64,000 nt of DNA, from positions 1 through 64,000 of IMG/VR virus record IMGVR_UViG_3300032213_000694; one strand, 5' to 3'. Every line of letters begins with the position of its first letter. Position 1 is the stretch's first letter. Both the position numbers and the translations under genes were made by a program. The notes below the pieces were generated by a model. That model ran no database searches and had not been told where the DNA came from. It saw only the letters and a program-made list of their open reading frames with translations. The DNA comes from an uncultured virus (IMG/VR IMGVR_UViG_3300032213_000694) (Duplodnaviria; Heunggongvirae; Uroviricota; Caudoviricetes; Crassvirales). Of the stretch, positions 6,100 to 63,740 are shown in pieces.

Positions 6100-7233
6100 T
6101 TATAAATTAATTTTAGTGCCTATCATGCCAAGGTATGACTGAGGAACCATAGGATTGGTATTAATGCCTGTCTTCAATGCAAAATTAAATTTAAAGCGTT
6201 TGCTTAGTGCAATATCAAACGAGGCTCCTGTCAAAAATCCAATATCATTACTTGTCACAAATACTTTTTGTTTGGTTAGGTATCCTGTTGACGATCCTGA
6301 TACGTATATATCAGGGCTAATTGACACGTATCGATTTATCTTGATTGGAACGGTGTAGAATAGCATAATATTATTAGACACGTTCAACTCTTCTCCCGCA
6401 CCCGCAAGTGATAATGTATAGTTGGCTCCTGTGGTGCCATACTTGCCCATAGGGACGATGTAAGCAGCCGTTCCGAAGCCTAACACATTTCCTGCTAAAT
6501 AAACGCCTGTAACGCCAAAGTTTGAGATGGACTCTAACTTACCACCATTAAAATTCATCATGGTGTAGCGTCCACCTAATGCAAATTGGTCGAAGGTTGA
6601 CCATATCATAGAGTTAATGCCCCACGATGAATTACCCATCAAGGAGGCTTGGCTCATGCCAACACTAGCAATAATAGATACTATTTCACTAGTCGGAGCG
6701 ACCGTAAAATCCGATGAATAAATAATTGGATTCGACGAAGAAGACTTTGCTTTACTTTCGCTCTTTTTCTCGGACTTGCTTTCTGACTTTTGCTCTTCAC
6801 TTTTAGATTCTGTTTTGGTTTCTACTGCTGTTTCTGATTTACTCTCAGCTACAGGAGCTGGAGTTGATGTAGCTGCTGAAGTAGCTGCCGATGTAGCAGC
6901 ACTAGTTGCCGCTGATGTTGCTGCACTTGTGGCTGTTGCTACTGCTTGAGATACTGCGTTGGCTACCGTCTGTTGTACAGCAAGAGTTGCTTGTGGACAA
7001 GGGAAGTTAACCGTTAACTCATTTATCCACGCTTGGAGTGCTCCACTTGTAATATCGTTTGCCGTCACTACCCTGTATTGTCCTCGGTAGACCACGGTAG
7101 TTCTGCCGCCCGCTAATGGTACTACTACAGTTGTTACCCTGCCACTGCACGGATCTACGAACACCTGCGTAAGTGTTTGTCCGTACGTAGTCGTGGCTAA
7201 GATAAGTATGGCTATAGTAACTAACCATTTCAT
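6100..7233 (-). CDS. secreted protein with AATS repeats and probable C-terminal outer-membrane beta-barrel
   Basis: Signal peptide, AATS repeat and K/S/E linker, then alternating hydrophobic beta-strands ending GTKINL. Confidence 0.55.
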   Translation of the reverse strand: MKWLVTIAILILATTTYGQTLTQVFVDPCSGRVTTVVVPLAGGRTTVVYRGQYRVVTANDITSGALQAWINELTVNFPCPQATLAVQQTVANAVSQAVATATSAATSAATSAATSAATSAATSTPAPVAESKSETAVETKTESKSEEQKSESKSEKKSESKAKSSSSNPIIYSSDFTVAPTSEIVSIIASVGMSQASLMGNSSWGINSMIWSTFDQFALGGRYTMMNFNGGKLESISNFGVTGVYLAGNVLGFGTAAYIVPMGKYGTTGANYTLSLAGAGEELNVSNNIMLFYTVPIKINRYVSISPDIYVSGSSTGYLTKQKVFVTSNDIGFLTGASFDIALSKRFKFNFALKTGINTNPMVPQSYLGMIGTKINL

Positions 7234-7937
7234 TTAAAGATTTTCTTCTTAATCATTCTGACAATAATTTTACTTGTGGCATTCTCCAACGCTTTCTTTG
7301 TTGTTGTGCCTATTGTAGATTGATTAAATTTAATTTCTGCAAAGTTCCCATCGTTCATCAATGTTGCCTCACGTGTAGTCTTTGCCTCGCCTAATCCTGA
7401 GCCTGTAAAGTATTCGCCTGTCTCTGCGTTCACAAACTTAACTTGTAAACCCATTCTTGTTACCACAGTTTGCTTGGCTCCATCTTTTAAACTAATAGAT
7501 TCGTCTTCACTAACCGAGAAGTCGTAGCATTCAATGTATACAAAGTACTGAGCAAGTTTAATCTTGCCACGTCCGTCTAGTTTGTTCTCTGATATGCCTG
7601 CTTGACTAGCCTGAAACTGCTTGACCATTCGGTTCTTAATCTCCGCTTTGTCTTCTGTGAACGTAAAGCGATTAGTCTCTTCCAAGAACTCAACCACGAT
7701 ATTAGTTACGCCTAGACCCACCCGCTTGTCTTTTAACTCAGGGTATGCCGCATACACATCCTCATTAATGCCAACTGACAATAATTGGATGGAAACCTTT
7801 GGACCATCATAGTCCATCAACGAATCGATGTTAATCTTCTTCTCAAAACTAGCCTGATAAGCCTCCGTTTTGGTCGTTGCAATCTGCCCAAAGGACGCAA
7901 ACGATAAGAGCAATAAGCAAATATTCCATTTTACCAT
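7230..7937 (-). CDS. CsgG/HfaB-like (curli assembly/transport fold) protein
   Basis: Signal peptide; GLGVTNIVVEFLEETNRF...AQYFV...YDFS...GLQVKFVNAETGE....SG.G pattern. Confidence 0.7.
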   Translation of the reverse strand: MVKWNICLLLLSFASFGQIATTKTEAYQASFEKKINIDSLMDYDGPKVSIQLLSVGINEDVYAAYPELKDKRVGLGVTNIVVEFLEETNRFTFTEDKAEIKNRMVKQFQASQAGISENKLDGRGKIKLAQYFVYIECYDFSVSEDESISLKDGAKQTVVTRMGLQVKFVNAETGEYFTGSGLGEAKTTREATLMNDGNFAEIKFNQSTIGTTTKKALENATSKIIVRMIKKKIFK

Positions 7938-16368: not shown

Positions 16369-16875
16369 ATGATCAAAACATATATGAAGCCTAGGCACAT
16401 AAAGCCAAGGGCTATTAAAGTGCGTGAATACAAGGTTAAGCCAATAGTTATCAGACGTGAGGCTGTCGACAAAGACTTTCTAAAATACATTAAAGTTGTG
16501 CGTGCTTGGGCCCGTCATAAGCATGGATTGAGTCTAGATGACTTTGAAATGCTGTGCTATTTGTACTCTGAACACGTATTTGATGCCAATCAGTTCGATC
16601 AATACTGCCAAATCTTTGGATTTACCCAAAATAGACGCAAAGATTTAATGGATAAGGGTCTAGTTGTGCACTTTAGGAAGCCTGAGCCTGGCAAAAGGGC
16701 TATTTATGAGCTATCATACCAAGCAAAGATCATCATGCGTCAAGTTTATGAGATGTTGCAAGGTGAAAAACCTATTCCAAAGCTATCTGACATCAAGCCT
16801 ATAAACAATAAACCCCATCACTTTGCCAAAAGGCAATATGACAGGGTCATTGAGCGTGCTAATAAGAACTTTTAG
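16369..16875 (+). CDS. putative winged-helix (MarR-like) DNA-binding protein
   Basis: GLSLDDFEMLCYLYS...LMDKGLV...YELSYQAK..M..VY; only convincing + strand gene in the late arm. Confidence 0.55.
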   Translation: MIKTYMKPRHIKPRAIKVREYKVKPIVIRREAVDKDFLKYIKVVRAWARHKHGLSLDDFEMLCYLYSEHVFDANQFDQYCQIFGFTQNRRKDLMDKGLVVHFRKPEPGKRAIYELSYQAKIIMRQVYEMLQGEKPIPKLSDIKPINNKPHHFAKRQYDRVIERANKNF

Positions 16876-17129
16876 AGCACCACCACCACATCTTTCTCAG
16901 TGATGACCGTATATAGGTCCTCATTGATGCGAATACTGTGGCCAGCTGCACGATCAAAGTAGATAAATGAGCCTGGTTTGATGCCATCTACTAGCGAGCC
17001 TTGTGATACCACGGTAGCTTTCTTGTAGCGTAGCTCATTTACGTCCGATGCGGACATGATAAGCCCCCCTTTTGATTTTGTGTCCTCTTCCATTGGGACT
17101 ATTAGAATATTCTTTCCAATTACCTTCAT
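16872..17129 (-). CDS. groES: co-chaperonin GroES
   Basis: IGKNILI.P......KGGLIM...ATVVSQG...IKPG..I.F....G..I......Y.VI.EKDVV. Confidence 0.9.
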   Translation of the reverse strand: MKVIGKNILIVPMEEDTKSKGGLIMSASDVNELRYKKATVVSQGSLVDGIKPGSFIYFDRAAGHSIRINEDLYTVITEKDVVVVL

Positions 17130-17153
17130 AACATTAATTATATTTTAGATTTC

Positions 17154-17381
17154 TTTACAAATTTGTAAATTTTATTTAACCTTATTATCAGAACTTACAC
17201 TTTTTTACAAGTTTCGTCAATAGTGTGCATTACTAATATACACTATCGGTTTGTATTTTTGTCATTTACCTCACCATATTGGTTTGGATTTTTATCATTA
17301 TCCGTAGTATTACTACCGAATTTGGCACTATTTTGTAACGTATTTTGGCAAAATTTGTTACACAACTCGGAATAATTCCGA
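17154..17381. promoter_or_regulatory. array of unrelated operator-like palindromes and one direct-repeat pair
   Basis: Six inverted repeats and a 23-bp direct repeat fill the groEL-groES gap; includes TCGGAATAATTCCGA (GGA-N5-TCC). Confidence 0.65.
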
Positions 17382-17382
17382 A

Positions 17383-18939
17383 TTATGCTCTAATGTTGGT
17401 TATCACCGTCTCTGTGGATAGCAATGTGGTAGCCACTGACACCGCATTCTTGAGTGCTTCTTTAGTCACCTTGGTCGGGTCAATGATCCCAACGCTCATC
17501 ATGTGGCAGTAGGCCCCTGTTGCCACGTTTATGCCTAGACCCTCTTTTGACAACTGTTGTCCCTGGTCAAAGTCTTCTGCGTTCACGTCGATCCCAGCGT
17601 TAGCTAGTATGCGCATCATTGGTGCCACCATCGCTAGTCGTAGTATCTCATCACCCTTGTTATTCTCATCCATCTTAGCAGCGATGTCTTTTAGAGCCAC
17701 GCCACCACCTGGCAGGATGCCCTCTTCTAGTGCTGCTCTAACCGCACACACCGCATCGTCCACCCGGTCCTTCTTCTCCTTCTGCTCAATGTCTGAGTTA
17801 GCACCCACCTTGATGACACCCACGCCACCGCCTAGATTAGCGATGCGTTCTTTTAAGAACTCTTTCTCTATCGCCTGGCTCTCCACGGCCATCTGCTCAT
17901 TTAACTCCTCTACTCTCTCCTCGCCTGCACCCTCTGCATCGAAGATAATTGTATTGAAGCGAGAGCTGACAATCTTACTCGCCCGTCCACAGTCGTCAAT
18001 GGTCGCCATTAGCAAGTTGTCACCCGTCTGCTCCGAGAAGTACTTAGCACCCGTCGCAATTGCTATGTCCTGCATGATCTGATGACGCTTGTAGCCAAAT
18101 GATGGAGGAATAATTGTGCACACCTTTAGACCACTCTTAATCTTGTTCACATTAAGCGTGTTTAGCGCATTCTCATCTAACTCCCCAATGATCAATAGCG
18201 AGCCTCTGCCCTGGTGTACAAACTCAAGGATAGGCAAGATGTCGTTGATGTTTGTAATGGGTTGGTCAGTGACCAAGATGTATGGCTTGTCTAAGATGGC
18301 CTCTTGTTTCTTGTGGTCTGTTACAAAGTACTTACTAGCGAACCCTCTGTCCACCTTCATCCCGCTCACCACCTCAGCGTATGTCTCAGCGGTAGCCGAG
18401 CTCTCTACTGTCACCACGCCTGATAGGCCAACTTGATTGTACGCATCAGCGATAATCTGTCCAATCTCTGCGTCGCCATTAGCGGATATAGTTGCGACAT
18501 CGACCAACTTATCTGATGTAATCTCTGTCGACATAGCCGTTAGCTCATCAGCCACTTTAATAGCTGCAGCCTGCACATCTCTTAATACTTGTGTGGTATT
18601 GTCTTCTTTAGTTAGCACACCAGTTGCCGCATGGATAATGGCCTGTGCCAGCACCATACTTGTCGTCGTGCCATCGCCTGCCGAGTTGGCAGTCTTCTCA
18701 GATGCTTCTCGCATGATCATGACAGCTAGGTTCTCAGCTGGGTCCATTAAGTTAATTGACTTAGCGACCGTCACTCCATCCTTGGTGACCGTGATGCCAC
18801 CAATGTGTTGCTCGGACTCAATGAGCACCGTGCGACCACGAGCCCCTAGTGTTGACCCCACAGCGTTAGCTATGGTATTTACGCCTTTGATTAATTTCTG
18901 TCTGCCTTCACTTCCGAAGACGATATCTTTTACTATCAT
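17383..18939 (-). CDS. groEL: chaperonin GroEL
   Basis: TKDGVTVAK, AGDGTTT, KKDRVDDA, EEGILPGGG, GIIDPTKV; no GGM tail. Confidence 0.97.
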   Translation of the reverse strand: MIVKDIVFGSEGRQKLIKGVNTIANAVGSTLGARGRTVLIESEQHIGGITVTKDGVTVAKSINLMDPAENLAVMIMREASEKTANSAGDGTTTSMVLAQAIIHAATGVLTKEDNTTQVLRDVQAAAIKVADELTAMSTEITSDKLVDVATISANGDAEIGQIIADAYNQVGLSGVVTVESSATAETYAEVVSGMKVDRGFASKYFVTDHKKQEAILDKPYILVTDQPITNINDILPILEFVHQGRGSLLIIGELDENALNTLNVNKIKSGLKVCTIIPPSFGYKRHQIMQDIAIATGAKYFSEQTGDNLLMATIDDCGRASKIVSSRFNTIIFDAEGAGEERVEELNEQMAVESQAIEKEFLKERIANLGGGVGVIKVGANSDIEQKEKKDRVDDAVCAVRAALEEGILPGGGVALKDIAAKMDENNKGDEILRLAMVAPMMRILANAGIDVNAEDFDQGQQLSKEGLGINVATGAYCHMMSVGIIDPTKVTKEALKNAVSVATTLLSTETVITNIRA

Positions 18940-18957
18940 GTTAGATTTTATTTGTTA

Positions 18958-18999
18958 CAAATTTATATACAATAGTAACACCAAACAACTATCATGCCA
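18958..18999 (-). promoter_or_regulatory. groEL promoter: -7 box and a sigma54-like element
   Basis: TAAATTTG (18958-18965); TGGCATGATAGTTGT (18985-18999). Confidence 0.5.
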
Positions 19000-19008
19000 C
19001 AAATTTGT

Positions 19009-19230
19009 TTGTGTACAAATGTAGAACTTTACCCCCCATTACGTAAATAATATTTTTTTATTTTAGAGAAAAAAAATTTTTTCTAATTTTCCTTTATATT
19101 TTGTTCATTTTATACATAATCTAATAATAAAATATATAAATAACTATATATCAATAAGTTATAAATGTAAACTTTAAAAAAAAGTGTACACAATTCAACA
19201 TCGTTTGTGTACAACTTTACAAATAGTACA
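19009..19230. repeat. origin-like element A (GTGTACA repeats, AT-rich core, IHF consensus)
   Basis: GTGTACA at 19011, 19184, 19207; TATCAATAAGTTA at 19149-19161; homologous to 28097-28292. Confidence 0.6.
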
Positions 19231-19264
19231 ATTCGTCTTGGAAAAGTGCAATGATATTTTAGGC

Positions 19265-19299
19265 AAAAAAAGACCCAAGTCTTATGAACCTGGGTTTTT
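19265..19299 (-). terminator. intrinsic terminator (possibly bidirectional)
   Basis: ACCCAGGT-N7-ACTTGGGT followed by CTTTTTTT on -. Confidence 0.65.
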
Positions 19300-19300
19300 A

Positions 19301-19564
19301 TTATCTGTTTCTTAAAGTTGCCCTGTTAGTTAATCGATCGTAAACATATTCATTTTTACTTCTTCCCGAGGTCTTTGATGCACGGTCTATCGCACGCTCA
19401 CTAGCAGTCATCGCATTGCGTTTAGCACCCTTGGCTGTAAGCTTACCAAATGAATTTAAATCTCCACGCTTCTTAAGTATACCAATAGCCATGTCTCTAG
19501 AACCCACCTGTGAGGCAAGCCTATCAACCAATTGGTTACGACCCATGTATTTCTGTGACTGCAT
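19301..19564 (-). CDS. basic hypothetical protein
   Basis: GRNQLVDRLASQVG...LTAKGAKRNAMTASERAIDRASK; start at 19564 or 19546. Confidence 0.7.
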   Translation of the reverse strand: MQSQKYMGRNQLVDRLASQVGSRDMAIGILKKRGDLNSFGKLTAKGAKRNAMTASERAIDRASKTSGRSKNEYVYDRLTNRATLRNR

Positions 19565-27794: not shown

Positions 27795-28094
27795 ATGGCA
27801 CAATTAATTTCAGCATCTATTGATGTATCAAAAATCTCTAAGGATAAGTTAATCAAAGGAGATAAGGGCACGTACCTTAACATTACTGTATCTATCAATG
27901 ATGAGGTAGACCAGTACGGAAACCAAGCAGGTATCTATGAGTCTCAATCTAAGGAAGAGCGTGAGGCTAAGGAGAAGAAGAACTACCTAGGTAATGGTAA
28001 GATTGCTTGGTCATCTGAAGGTGGGTCAACTGCTAAGAAAGCACCAGCTCCTGCACCAACTCCAACGGTAGAAGAGACTGACCTTCCGTTCTAG
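27795..28094 (+). CDS. single-stranded DNA-binding protein-like
   Basis: G.KG.YL.I...DQYGN...Q...YLGNGK; acidic tail ending DLPF. Confidence 0.75.
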   Translation: MAQLISASIDVSKISKDKLIKGDKGTYLNITVSINDEVDQYGNQAGIYESQSKEEREAKEKKNYLGNGKIAWSSEGGSTAKKAPAPAPTPTVEETDLPF

Positions 28095-28096
28095 TC

Positions 28097-28292
28097 TTGT
28101 GTACAAATGAACAAAATATGTCTGACTTAGATGAAATATATTTTTTTCTTTTACAGGTAAATTATTTTTTCTCTTTTTCTTATATATTTTGTTCACTTTG
28201 TACATAAAAGAATATAATATACTAATAATCAATTAGTTAACTAGTGTACAAATTAAAAATTTTGTACACAAAACAGTGTACAAAGTGCTCAC
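28097..28292. repeat. origin-like element B upstream of primase-helicase
   Basis: ~20-bp inverted repeat (28100-28119 / 28184-28204) around T-rich core; IHF consensus AATCAATTAGTTA 28227-28239; further GTGTACA copies. Confidence 0.65.
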
Positions 28293-28307
28293 TTTAATTA
28301 AAACGAC

Positions 28308-30686
28308 GTGCAAGTAACTATTTTTTCTAACATAAAAGAGACATCTGTCCCATTCTATCGGGATGTCTTGGCTATACTCTCTAGAGTTAAAGAGGGTAAG
28401 TCCAAAGACATTGTCCGCAAGATTAGATTGGAGAAAGATAAGGAGCTACGTAACAAGCTCAAGCAAGAGTTGCCTGCGATATGTTTCTCAGGTACGTTCT
28501 CTAAGCGTGAAGACTCGGCTCTTATGGAGCATAGTGGTCTTATATGTTTAGACTTTGATAACTTCCCATCCAATGATGAGATACTAGCCAAGAAAGATGA
28601 ATTGGCTAATGACCCTTATACGTTTTCAGTTTTTATATCCCCATCAGGCAATGGCCTGAAGGTATTGGTTAAGATACCAAAGGATGCTAACAAGCACAAG
28701 TCATTCTTCAATGCACTGGAGGCTTACTATAACTGCGAGCAGTTTGATAAGACATCCAAGAATGTGTCACGTGTGTGCTATGAGTCCTACGATCCGACCA
28801 TCTTTGTTAACATCAACTCTATTGAGTGGAACAAGATTGATGATGCAGAGATTGAGCACGTGACTAAGGATATGAGGCCGACCATCCCTATCGATGATGA
28901 GGATGAGATTATTAATAGACTATCTAAGTGGTGGGATAATAAGTTTGGCTTTGTGTCAGGTGCACGCAACAACAATCTGTTCGTGTTAGCTATGGCGTTC
29001 AATGAGTATGGTGTGTCTAAGTCTGAGGCGATGTATCGCATGATGGCATTCGCATCTGAGGACTTTACAACCAAGGAGATCCAATCCATCATTGACTCAG
29101 CCTATCGCCATACTGACAAGTATGCCACCAAGTATTTTGAGGATACCTCACGTGTTGACTTTGCAAAGAATCAACTAAGCCGTGGTGTGCCAAAAAAGGA
29201 CATCCGTTCTCAACTGAAAGCCTCCGGAGTGGAGGACGGAACGATTGATTCAGTACTAACTAGAATCGAGGAGGAGCAAAGCAAGAATACATTTTGGACT
29301 AAGAGTGACAAGGGTGTGGTGACATTGATACATTACGAGCTCAAGACATTCTTAGAAAATAATGGGTATCGCAAGTATGTACCTGAGGGTAACAAGGGCT
29401 TCATCTTTGTACGCATCAATCAGAATCTAATCGAGATGTGCACGGAGGATGACATCAAGGACTTTGTGTTAAACCACATACTTGATAACTTTCAGGATCT
29501 AAGCGTGTACAATTACTTTGCGGACAAGACTCGATTCTTTAGAGAGGACTTCTTGTCTATGCTTGACTCAGTCAACATCTATTTTGTGGAGGACACAAAG
29601 GATGAGGCGTACCTATACTTCAAGAATGGTGTAGTCAAGGTGACTAAGAACCAAACTGTCCTGCTTAACTATGAGGACTTAGGTGGCTACGTGTGGTCTG
29701 ACCAAGTCATCCAACGTGACTTTGTTTTCTGCCCCGCAGATGAGTGTGACTACAAGACATTCATTCGCAACATCGGTGGTAATGATGACCAACGTGTAGC
29801 CTCCATCGAGTCGACCATCGGGTTCATCCTGCATGCATTTAAGAATGGTGGCTACTGCCCTGCGGTAATCATTAATGATGAGGTGATATCAGAGAACCCT
29901 GAGGGTGGTACTGGTAAGGGTTTATTCATGAACGGCATAAGCCGAATGAAGAAGGCTGTCACCATTGATGGTAAGTCATTCTCGTTCGATAAGTCTTTTG
30001 CTTATCAGTTAGTGAGCACAGACACGCAGGTGTTGGTGTTCGATGATGTGAAGAAGAACTTTGACTTTGAGCGATTATTCTCGGTAGTTACTGAGGGTAT
30101 CACGGTTGAGCGTAAGAACAAGGATGCGATTAAGATCCCATTCCATAAGTCACCTAAGGTGGTCATAACGACTAACTACGCTATCCAAGGTAAGGGTAAC
30201 TCATTTGAGAGGCGTAAGTGGGAGATGGAGTTCAAGCAATTCTATTCTAAAGACTTCACACCTCAGGATGAGTTTGGTCGGTTGTTATTCAACGACTGGA
30301 GTCAAGATGATTGGTGTGCGTTCGACAACTACATGATCAAAGTATTGCAGGGCTACCTAAATACCGGCTTGGTTAAGTGTAACTTTGTAAACCTTAAAGA
30401 ACGCAAGTTCAGGGCAGAGACTAACGCTGAGTTTGCTGAGTGGGCTCATGAGTTTGGGCCATCATTCATACCAACAAATCAGCGATTCAGACCTGATGAT
30501 GTGTTTGATAAGTTTATAGCGGATAACAACGGCATGTTCCGTATGCTATCTAAGCAACGATTTAATTCGTGGCTACGTACCTACTGCTTGCACATGACAG
30601 GAAGTAACCCTGTAGAGGGTCGTGATGGTGCAGGTAAGTGGATGGTGTTCCCATTAAAAGAAGATAAACAATTAGAATTATTATGA
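28308..30686 (+). CDS. primase-helicase (BT4734/VirE-N primase, PriCT-1, SF3-like helicase)
   Basis: K.ELP...FSG.F..R...HSGLICLDFD, SPSGNGLK, R.CY.SYD; G.RNN.LF..A; Walker A GGTGKG, FDD, TTN. Confidence 0.88.
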   Translation: MQVTIFSNIKETSVPFYRDVLAILSRVKEGKSKDIVRKIRLEKDKELRNKLKQELPAICFSGTFSKREDSALMEHSGLICLDFDNFPSNDEILAKKDELANDPYTFSVFISPSGNGLKVLVKIPKDANKHKSFFNALEAYYNCEQFDKTSKNVSRVCYESYDPTIFVNINSIEWNKIDDAEIEHVTKDMRPTIPIDDEDEIINRLSKWWDNKFGFVSGARNNNLFVLAMAFNEYGVSKSEAMYRMMAFASEDFTTKEIQSIIDSAYRHTDKYATKYFEDTSRVDFAKNQLSRGVPKKDIRSQLKASGVEDGTIDSVLTRIEEEQSKNTFWTKSDKGVVTLIHYELKTFLENNGYRKYVPEGNKGFIFVRINQNLIEMCTEDDIKDFVLNHILDNFQDLSVYNYFADKTRFFREDFLSMLDSVNIYFVEDTKDEAYLYFKNGVVKVTKNQTVLLNYEDLGGYVWSDQVIQRDFVFCPADECDYKTFIRNIGGNDDQRVASIESTIGFILHAFKNGGYCPAVIINDEVISENPEGGTGKGLFMNGISRMKKAVTIDGKSFSFDKSFAYQLVSTDTQVLVFDDVKKNFDFERLFSVVTEGITVERKNKDAIKIPFHKSPKVVITTNYAIQGKGNSFERRKWEMEFKQFYSKDFTPQDEFGRLLFNDWSQDDWCAFDNYMIKVLQGYLNTGLVKCNFVNLKERKFRAETNAEFAEWAHEFGPSFIPTNQRFRPDDVFDKFIADNNGMFRMLSKQRFNSWLRTYCLHMTGSNPVEGRDGAGKWMVFPLKEDKQLELL

Positions 30687-62915: not shown

Positions 62916-63193
62916 TTAGTTTTTGCTCTTTGTTCTGCGAATCCACGATTAGTAGGTGCAGAGTTACCAACTACTCCCTCAATAATATTATTCTCCTCCT
63001 CGACTCTTTTAAGAATCTCAAAAGCATCCATGATAGCAAGTTTCTTTGCTGCCGCTGCGTTCTTAAGTTTGTCTGCAGACAAGTCATCATCCATGTGGGT
63101 GACAATCTTCTCTTCAGCAACTTTAATCAACTCCTCAACGGCTTTATACCCAGAGTCAATAATACGCTTTTTTAACTCGGTTATTTTATTCAT
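62912..63193 (-). CDS. terminase small subunit (putative)
   Basis: 93 aa helical protein coupled to terL. Confidence 0.55.
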   Translation of the reverse strand: MNKITELKKRIIDSGYKAVEELIKVAEEKIVTHMDDDLSADKLKNAAAAKKLAIMDAFEILKRVEEENNIIEGVVGNSAPTNRGFAEQRAKTK

Positions 63194-63740
63194 TTAATTT
63201 GATTGTTACATTCTTAGTGTACACACGATATAGAATCTCGCCATCTAGGTCGAACTCATACTCGCTATCAGGCTCAAACGTGACCATGTCGCCATCTTTT
63301 ACACCTAAGTCTAGTATCTCATCGTTCGTGTATCTTATCGTGCCTGTAAGAGGCTTCTTTGCGTCTGCTGTAGTAATGCCTTCAAAGTCATTATCGATTG
63401 GCTTGATGAATAGATATCTACCGATTCCTTTCCACTCACCACCTGGCTTCTTATACGCATATGGATCGTCGACAAAGAACAAATCCTCTCGGAAGTAATT
63501 CCAAGCAGACTTCTCTCTACCACGCATGTCATAGTACAACCTGAAAGTATTATGATGGCACACAATTGTGTCGCCAGGCTCGATAGGCCCAGTGTAATTA
63601 ATAGGGGTTGAGATAACAACAGCTTCTCTTGTCGTTACACGATGATCTTCTTTAGAGGTGGAAATGTAAAGTTCTCCTCTTTGATTATCATACCTGTTGC
63701 CCCCCTTCGGTGTTACCAAATAATAGTAAGGGCTCCGCAT
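63186..63740 (-). CDS. tandem GroES-like co-chaperonin
   Basis: Two GroES-like halves: YLVTP...AVVISTP...IEPGDTI and IGRYLFIKP...GTIRY...VKDGDMVTF...EFDLDGE.LY.V. Confidence 0.65.
   Translation of the reverse strand: MRSPYYYLVTPKGGNRYDNQRGELYISTSKEDHRVTTREAVVISTPINYTGPIEPGDTIVCHHNTFRLYYDMRGREKSAWNYFREDLFFVDDPYAYKKPGGEWKGIGRYLFIKPIDNDFEGITTADAKKPLTGTIRYTNDEILDLGVKDGDMVTFEPDSEYEFDLDGEILYRVYTKNVTIKLNE

Follow-up and report, generated by a model that had tools for sequence, protein, structure and literature searches.

The 253-nt gap between the groEL and groES genes of this uncultured phage is packed with short modules which, judged by sequence comparison, are very probably operators of host toxin-antitoxin and candidate defence genes, three of them of the PDC-S01 type, three of the AbiE type and one of the HipBA type. 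The window, that is, the whole stretch of 64,000 nt that was analysed, holds most of a phage genome of 66,517 nt that encodes terminase, portal, virion proteins, endolysin, ribonucleotide reductase and exonucleases, and neither an integrase nor a repressor was found among the 70 ORFs scanned with PHROGs. The public sequencing runs that contain the stretch are mostly freshwater metagenomes. Comparison of GroEL gave no close cultured relative, the best match being 46.7%, and a search of the annotated phage collection with the array returned chance-level matches alone (E 0.2 or worse). A second, longer GroES-like gene lies near the terminase gene (63189-63740). Both neighbours of the gap are on the minus strand, and the features of the region are as follows.

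16872-17129, minus strand: groES (Pfam Cpn10), flanking the array
17127-17185, minus strand: 59-nt unit, hipB-type operator pair, collinear with an Aquirufa hipB-hipA leader
17183-17225, no strand: operator-like palindrome of a PDC-S01 (AAA_14-DUF4143) subfamily (L203, L204, L206, L208; about 35 bits)
17218-17246, no strand: operator-like palindrome of a second PDC-S01 subfamily, found in bacteria and archaea
17241-17312, plus strand: direct-repeat operator with a 33-bp period, third PDC-S01 subfamily (E 1.4e-10, 81%)
17301-17319, no strand: operator-like palindrome of an AbiE subfamily (L250, L252; 14/15 bases, centre base flipped; AbiEi by PADLOC)
17314-17320, no strand: second half-site of an AbiE promoter pair whose first site is 17364-17385, at the host spacing of 52 nt
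17320-17365, no strand: probable operator of another AbiE subfamily (L235, 35.6 bits, 77% over 48 columns; AbiEi by PADLOC)
17364-17385, no strand: operator-like palindrome of an AbiE subfamily, including GGA-N5-TCC (L240, L242, L246; AbiEi and AbiEii by PADLOC)
17383-18939, minus strand: groEL (Pfam Cpn60_TCP1), flanking the array
18951-18980, minus strand: further AbiE-type operator just ahead of groEL (L251, 40.1 bits)

The seven symmetric elements that the initial annotation had claimed for the gap were all found in place. They are a perfect palindrome at 17154-17169 (8/8 pairs), AACTT-N12-AAGTT at 17192-17213, a palindrome with 13-nt arms at 17220-17246 (85% paired), a direct repeat at 17244-17266 and 17277-17299 (87% identity, period 33), a palindrome at 17301-17319 (8/9 pairs), an inverted repeat at 17331-17365 (14/17 pairs) and a palindrome at 17367-17381 (7/7 pairs). 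Two of them had been delimited too narrowly: 17154-17169 is a palindrome but not a separate site, being the middle of the 59-nt inverted-repeat unit at 17127-17185, and 17192-17213 is an element but only the core of a longer one that extends over about 17183-17225. Beyond the seven, an additional half-site is present at 17314-17320. Palindromes with centres of 0-1 nt number 5 in the 253 nt as against 0.41 ± 0.61 in 1000 dinucleotide shuffles, none of which reached 5, and thus their density is above that of shuffled sequence. When loops of up to 12 nt were allowed, the palindrome count was equalled in 8 of 1000 shuffles and the summed score in none of 1000. The gap is the densest 250-nt palindrome stretch of the whole window, and no copies of the modules were found elsewhere in the phage's own genome except weak matches to the 16-mer with 3 mismatches. 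The gap folds only mildly better than its shuffles (z of -1.96 for the transcribed strand, the other figure being -1.31), which is the one point that speaks for a structured non-coding RNA. This explanation is highly improbable because the gap has no Rfam match at gathering score, the loops are of 0-1 nt, both orientations are seen among the centres, one of the modules is a direct repeat and the modules match DNA leaders, and the earlier preference for DNA sites over RNA hairpins therefore stands. No tRNA was found in the gap. The RNA-style covariation that had been named as the sign of a structured RNA did not appear: on the sense strand 24 G-U mismatches stood against 17 of the A-C type, and the modules, whose copies are not independent, showed no consistent bias.

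Each module was compared with the leaders of host genes. The hipB-type unit at 17127-17185 has its best match in L345 (44.6 bits), with others in L346 and L348-L351, and its end coincides with the groES start codon, in the same way that the end of the host unit coincides with the start of hipB. The genes behind the host 59-nt unit are, by Pfam, HTH_3 and then HipA_C, the inverted-repeat pair lying upstream of the HTH_3 gene and hipA. Searched alone, the 16-bp palindrome was found at 9 sites, spread over 8 of 64 genomes, the control having 5 sites, and none of the 9 was ahead of a defence gene. The host counterparts of 17183-17225 are 10-21 nt ahead of the start codon of a gene that PADLOC identifies as PDC-S01, and the same type of site was also found without a PDC-S01 gene, behind a Fic gene. 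The consensus of 17218-17246 gave 34 matches in a species-level genome collection, of which 7 are at most about 40 nt ahead of AAA_14-DUF4143 genes (Bacteroidota, Patescibacteria and archaea), 4 lie upstream of an abiEi-type gene in Aquirufa-type genomes and about 20 have unrelated neighbours. At one Aquirufa spot beside wzi (L214, L215, L255) the same operator is followed either by a PDC-S01 gene or by an abiE operon. When the whole gap was searched against five of the genomes matched by this consensus, the direct repeat was recovered at E 1e-10 in three, 25 nt ahead of another AAA_14-DUF4143 gene. Of 64 Aquirufa genomes, 9 carry it, in every case as the 33-bp pair, and 8 of these have it ahead of an AAA_14 gene, with 0 in the control; its orientation is with the gene in the host and against groES in the phage. 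The PDC-S01 leaders in the host thus carry a subfamily-specific symmetric site at most 75 nt from the AAA_14-DUF4143 start codon.

For AbiE, inverted repeats lie directly upstream of the abiEi-abiEii operon in the host. The counterpart of 17364-17385 is 19 nt ahead of abiEi, and the 52-nt spacing to the second half-site is shared by the phage and 4 of 5 host leaders of that subfamily (L240, L242, L244, L246), L238 being different. The site at 17320-17365, whose arms are 17 nt apart, is nested in the spacer of the pair formed by 17314-17320 and 17364-17385. The counterpart of 17301-17319 is about 65 nt ahead of abiEi, and this assignment is weaker because the match is below the 30-bit threshold. 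Exact-pattern searches for 17334-17362 and 17301-17319 in 61 genomes yielded nothing useful, both being recognised later by reading leaders, and 17301-17319 and 17320-17365 are the weakest assignments among the AbiE modules.

The significance of these matches was assessed with host loci from 64 Aquirufa genomes, the best 30 of each family being taken (30/31 for AAA_14, 30/55 for AbiEii, 30 of more than 150 for Fic and 30/63 for HipA), and these loci were chosen after the first lead had appeared. With a threshold of 30 bits, 32 of the 120 loci are matched by the array, namely, 20 AAA_14, 8 HipA and 4 AbiE, counts that are not independent events because the host loci are redundant; the best 30 of more than 150 Fic loci gave no match at this threshold. 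In 500 symmetry-preserving randomisations the mean was 1.4 loci and the maximum 12, and the reversed array matched 4. The matches cover 252 of 259 nt as against a control mean of 28, and this bears out the proposal that the sites were collected from a host, since nearly the whole gap matches Aquirufa defence-type leaders. A dinucleotide-shuffle control on 90 loci gave 1.2 against 23 matched, and when the whole phage genome was compared with 86 host leaders, 49 of 67 matches started in 17000-17499. Other intergenic stretches of the window matched 0-5 of the 120 loci except 18940-19303, which matched 10 and was found to hold another operator. TGTACA words are repeated in this A+T-rich gap and in that at 28092-28362, and the two are possibly sites of a phage regulator or origin regions. 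Single modules match weakly (30-40 bits), seven distinct types of host leader are matched, and site spacings of 33, 52 and 59 nt are preserved from the host leaders. The matched systems are patchy in Aquirufa, AAA_14 being present in 19, AbiEii in 31 and HipA in 37 of 64 genomes. Among 401 Bacteroidota genomes, with two candidates scored per genome, 21 match at E ≤ 0.005, the best outside Aquirufa is 1e-4, and none of the 24 contexts read from this search had the look of a defence leader. Among 201 genomes of the family, 88 match at E ≤ 0.1 and most of the 49 contexts read were chance-like, and the top four genomes are Aquirufa. Aquirufa is the likely host of the phage, judged by operator likeness alone.

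These matches change the reading of the individual sites. The initial annotation had named regulators of the LexA, GntR, LuxR, AraC and BlaI types, and what the comparison with AAA_14, AbiEii, Fic and HipA loci brought out instead were leaders of AbiE, PDC-S01 and hipBA genes; the direct repeat, taken for an AraC-type site, is the leader of an AAA_14-DUF4143 gene. GGA-N5-TCC at 17369-17379 does have the 6-base SOS-box pattern, which occurs 11 times in the phage genome, but an AbiE operator fits it better than a LexA box, since a 22-nt match and the 52-nt spacing to a second site point to an AbiE promoter. It fits the non-canonical Bacteroidetes LexA box described in PMC8565304, but the group with that box is, in the accessible text of that paper, mainly from Flavobacteriaceae, and the phage site has instead the longer AbiE-leader match and the 52-nt partner. 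The same text leaves LexA homologs of Cytophagaceae without a group. Integron-like, dif-like and palindrome-in-coding-sequence ideas were dropped after the operator matches, and the part of PMC9881135 that could be consulted had no bearing.

A predicted model of the AAA_14-DUF4143 protein (pLDDT 87) is structurally similar to archaeal AAA+ ATPases (Z 17.1, rmsd 4.7, 272 aligned) and also to Cdc6/Orc1, with a predicted layout of AAA+ plus winged helix at residues 236-307; no solved structure for this AAA_14 protein was found by sequence. A turn motif in the predicted winged helix is present in 9 of 9 AAA_14 proteins behind the 17218-17246 palindrome and in 0 of 22 others, counts that are not independent because the nine proteins are one clade. 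From the model, the PDC-S01 protein is predicted to bind its own leader site by the winged helix. In the accessible part of PMC12988326, PDC-S01 is a candidate defence without validation that ranks fourth in frequency among such candidates in prokaryotes.

Among viral contigs, 27 loci were found through groES. As had been anticipated, modules are gained and lost in related phages: in 20 close loci the gap is assembled from a shared stock of short units, with the subset varying and the order largely constant, and where no gene interrupts it its length varies from 132 to 387 nt. Contigs from 3 of 4 public runs, which are contigs of relatives at 80% likeness, skip whole modules. Extra modules of relatives match further hipBA, AbiE and AAA_14 leaders. 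In six distant relatives (L021-L026) groES overlaps the preceding gene and the gap is absent. Related phages have a second array site ahead of a homolog of the window gene at 7230-7937 (L036, L046, L050, L073), and a second phage lineage has the same units with unrelated flanking genes (L039, L042, L079, L376, L397), some of its arrays ending at a terminator-like hairpin. Thus the source of the modules, the kept spacings, the modular gain and loss and the independence of position and orientation can all be read at the sequence level, and the host genes that belong to these leaders are absent from the set. Single copies of related sites also occur elsewhere: the 18-bp perfect palindrome of the relatives' arrays is found single and intergenic in unrelated phages, some of them G+C-rich (L053-L057, L062, L065, L066), a single PDC-S01-type operator lies right behind a tRNA-like gene in another phage group (L074-L076, L078, L080), and in the second lineage an AbiE-type operator and a promoter are directly upstream of a small gene without assigned function (L419, L420, L422, L430).

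One explanation is that captured toxin-antitoxin promoter-operators drive or tune phage groEL, groES and small accessory genes according to the defence set of the host. TAnnTTTG is the Bacteroidota -7 consensus, and the AbiE-type operator at 18951-18980 overlaps such a promoter-like box and is kept ahead of groEL in 9 of 12 relatives listed; moreover, in the 59-nt unit the groES start takes the place of the hipB start, and small genes of the second lineage have one operator and a promoter just upstream (L419, L420, L422). For the array as a whole this is nevertheless unlikely, because no TAnnTTTG box occurs in the gap on the strand of groES, the direct repeat runs opposite to its direction at the host gene, the gap is absent in the distant relatives, and arrays lie ahead of unrelated genes and directly ahead of terminators. 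The arrays at other sites and ahead of terminators likewise weaken the earlier suggestion of a groES sensor or switch. Promoter capture may be true of the two end sites, with another role for the array.

Some close relatives have GIY-YIG-HTH, HNH-like or small genes inserted in the gap. GIY-YIG-like genes lie beside arrays in L001:2144-2731, L008:2271-2807, L013:2296-2976, L073:492-1064, L382:69-641 and L401:789-1361, and their C-terminal HTH matches particular host HipB subfamilies at 34-66%; one GIY-YIG-HTH gene sits inside a matching operator pair (L013/L045). They could be selfish elements that exploit the array, mimics of repressors or nucleases guided by operators. Such insertions suggest another explanation, that the modules are functionless operators left by genes passing through an insertion hot spot, be they captured toxin-antitoxin genes or GIY-YIG-HTH genes with HipB-like domains. 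The HTH domains of inserted genes that match host HipB subfamilies at 44-66%, the gene inside its matching operator pair and the fact that host chromosomes too retain operators after gene loss are in keeping with this. It accounts, however, for the HipB-type module only: inspection by eye of the genes that interrupt the gap in 8 relatives showed no coding remnants of AbiE, AAA_14 or HipA. The cores lie edge to edge, their symmetry is maintained through divergence, up to 540 nt of array is held (L036), and blocks common to two phage lineages argue for selection. We consider functionless leftovers distinctly unlikely.

Titration of host DNA-binding proteins, as first proposed, remains the lead, with defence proteins as the putative targets. 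Titrating away a repressor would, at face value, benefit the host, and so there must be some gain for the phage. It is possible that the array strips autorepressors from host promoters so that more antitoxin is made and toxins are neutralised, or that operons are turned on against competing phages. The matched host sites are 6-75 nt ahead of start codons, which are autorepression positions, the antitoxin gene is first in AbiE and HipBA, and titration by decoy sites works in E. coli according to the accessible text of PMC7826281. Derepression would, however, require continued host transcription during infection, and three modules come from single-gene PDC-S01 loci without an antitoxin gene, where the toxin should rise; we regard it as improbable.

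We give about an even chance to the proposal that DNA-binding toxins and antitoxins set free by degradation of the host chromosome are tethered anew by the amplified phage DNA. HipB binds its own operator; silencing of HipA is reportedly DNA-dependent, a point that carries no weight in this estimate. Each host protein would bind its own leader through its HTH or winged-helix domain. These sites would be lost once phage nucleases had degraded the chromosome, and the bound toxin or toxin-antitoxin complex would be freed and activated; the replicating phage would supply many new copies of the sites, and the proteins would stay tethered and silent. A broad set of operators would cover whichever systems a given strain carries, and the modules would have been trimmed to their binding cores and compactly collected. 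Re-tethering is favoured because it fits single-gene ATPase-nucleases as well as toxin-antitoxin pairs. That the phage degrades host DNA is only suggested by its exonuclease and ribonucleotide reductase genes. Against re-tethering, the groEL and groES starts lie in toxin-antitoxin-type leaders, as promoter capture would have it. Hosts in which the operator is kept and the gene lost (G001, G191 and the site behind the Fic gene) fit re-tethering and equally ordinary deletion. Operator pairs without a cognate gene are seen in prokaryotic genomes at L142 (G191), L126:8600-8660 (G001), L130:2376-2417, L083, L084 and L112. In its broadest form, to which we assign somewhat less than an even chance, the proposal would be that many autoregulated toxin-antitoxin and single-gene ATPase-nuclease systems are tethered to their own operator DNA and sense loss of the chromosome, and that phages counter them with non-coding operator libraries, a broad DNA sponge that passes from one phage to another, unrelated one and is renewed one module at a time.

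If this is the case, it would be an anti-defence strategy without a protein or RNA product and invisible to gene-based searches, and arrays would report host range and which uncharacterised genes are real defences. The array makes it testable whether PDC-S01 is a real defence and how phages trigger AbiE, a trigger that is called elusive in the accessible text of an AbiE preprint (10.64898/2026.01.19.700257). The same text counts against re-tethering: it reports no phage protection by AbiE in E. coli, assigns antitoxicity to the C-terminal domain, separately from DNA binding, and offers the speculation that the toxin would be activated if viral DNA sequestered AbiEi. Even without a mechanism, binding sites are predicted for three PDC-S01 subfamilies and an uncultured phage is linked to a likely host genus. 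The structure of the array is well supported and probably new, its function being putative: among the titles and abstract beginnings found, subscription papers being mostly outside their coverage, none describes phage-borne operator arrays of toxin-antitoxin or defence genes, and the words operator and non-coding are absent from a November 2026 update on phage countermeasures.

Phage products that borrow a piece of a defence system include pseudo-ToxI repeats and RNA anti-CRISPRs, which are RNAs, and orphan DarG-like antitoxins (PMC11825919), which are reportedly antitoxin mimics and protein-based. Protein sponges (PMC13728456, in part) are alike in that a stolen piece of a defence system neutralises it, but they are proteins and mostly act against one system, whereas the phage array is non-coding double-stranded DNA that would be aimed at many. 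Binding of AbiEi to paired promoter repeats has been published for IR1-IR2 of S. agalactiae abiE and for M. tuberculosis rv2827c (PMC7319586, accessible part). The paired short inverted repeats ahead of abiEi, which are antitoxin-specific, have the same layout in Aquirufa leaders and are copied by the phage, but the phage sites are on a genome without abiE and several kinds are side by side. In PANGU (10.64898/2026.04.06.716658), as far as its available text goes, a DNA-bound host protein that is freed by phage-driven genome degradation triggers abortive infection, which is the logic that re-tethering needs; its sensor, however, is a nucleoid protein and not a site-specific autorepressor, escape is by nuclease mutation, and the words decoy, operator and binding site are absent from its main text. 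Synthetic transcription-factor decoy arrays (PMC7826281, in part) likewise titrate a regulator with multicopy sites, but those are engineered and not aimed at immunity, whereas the phage array is natural.
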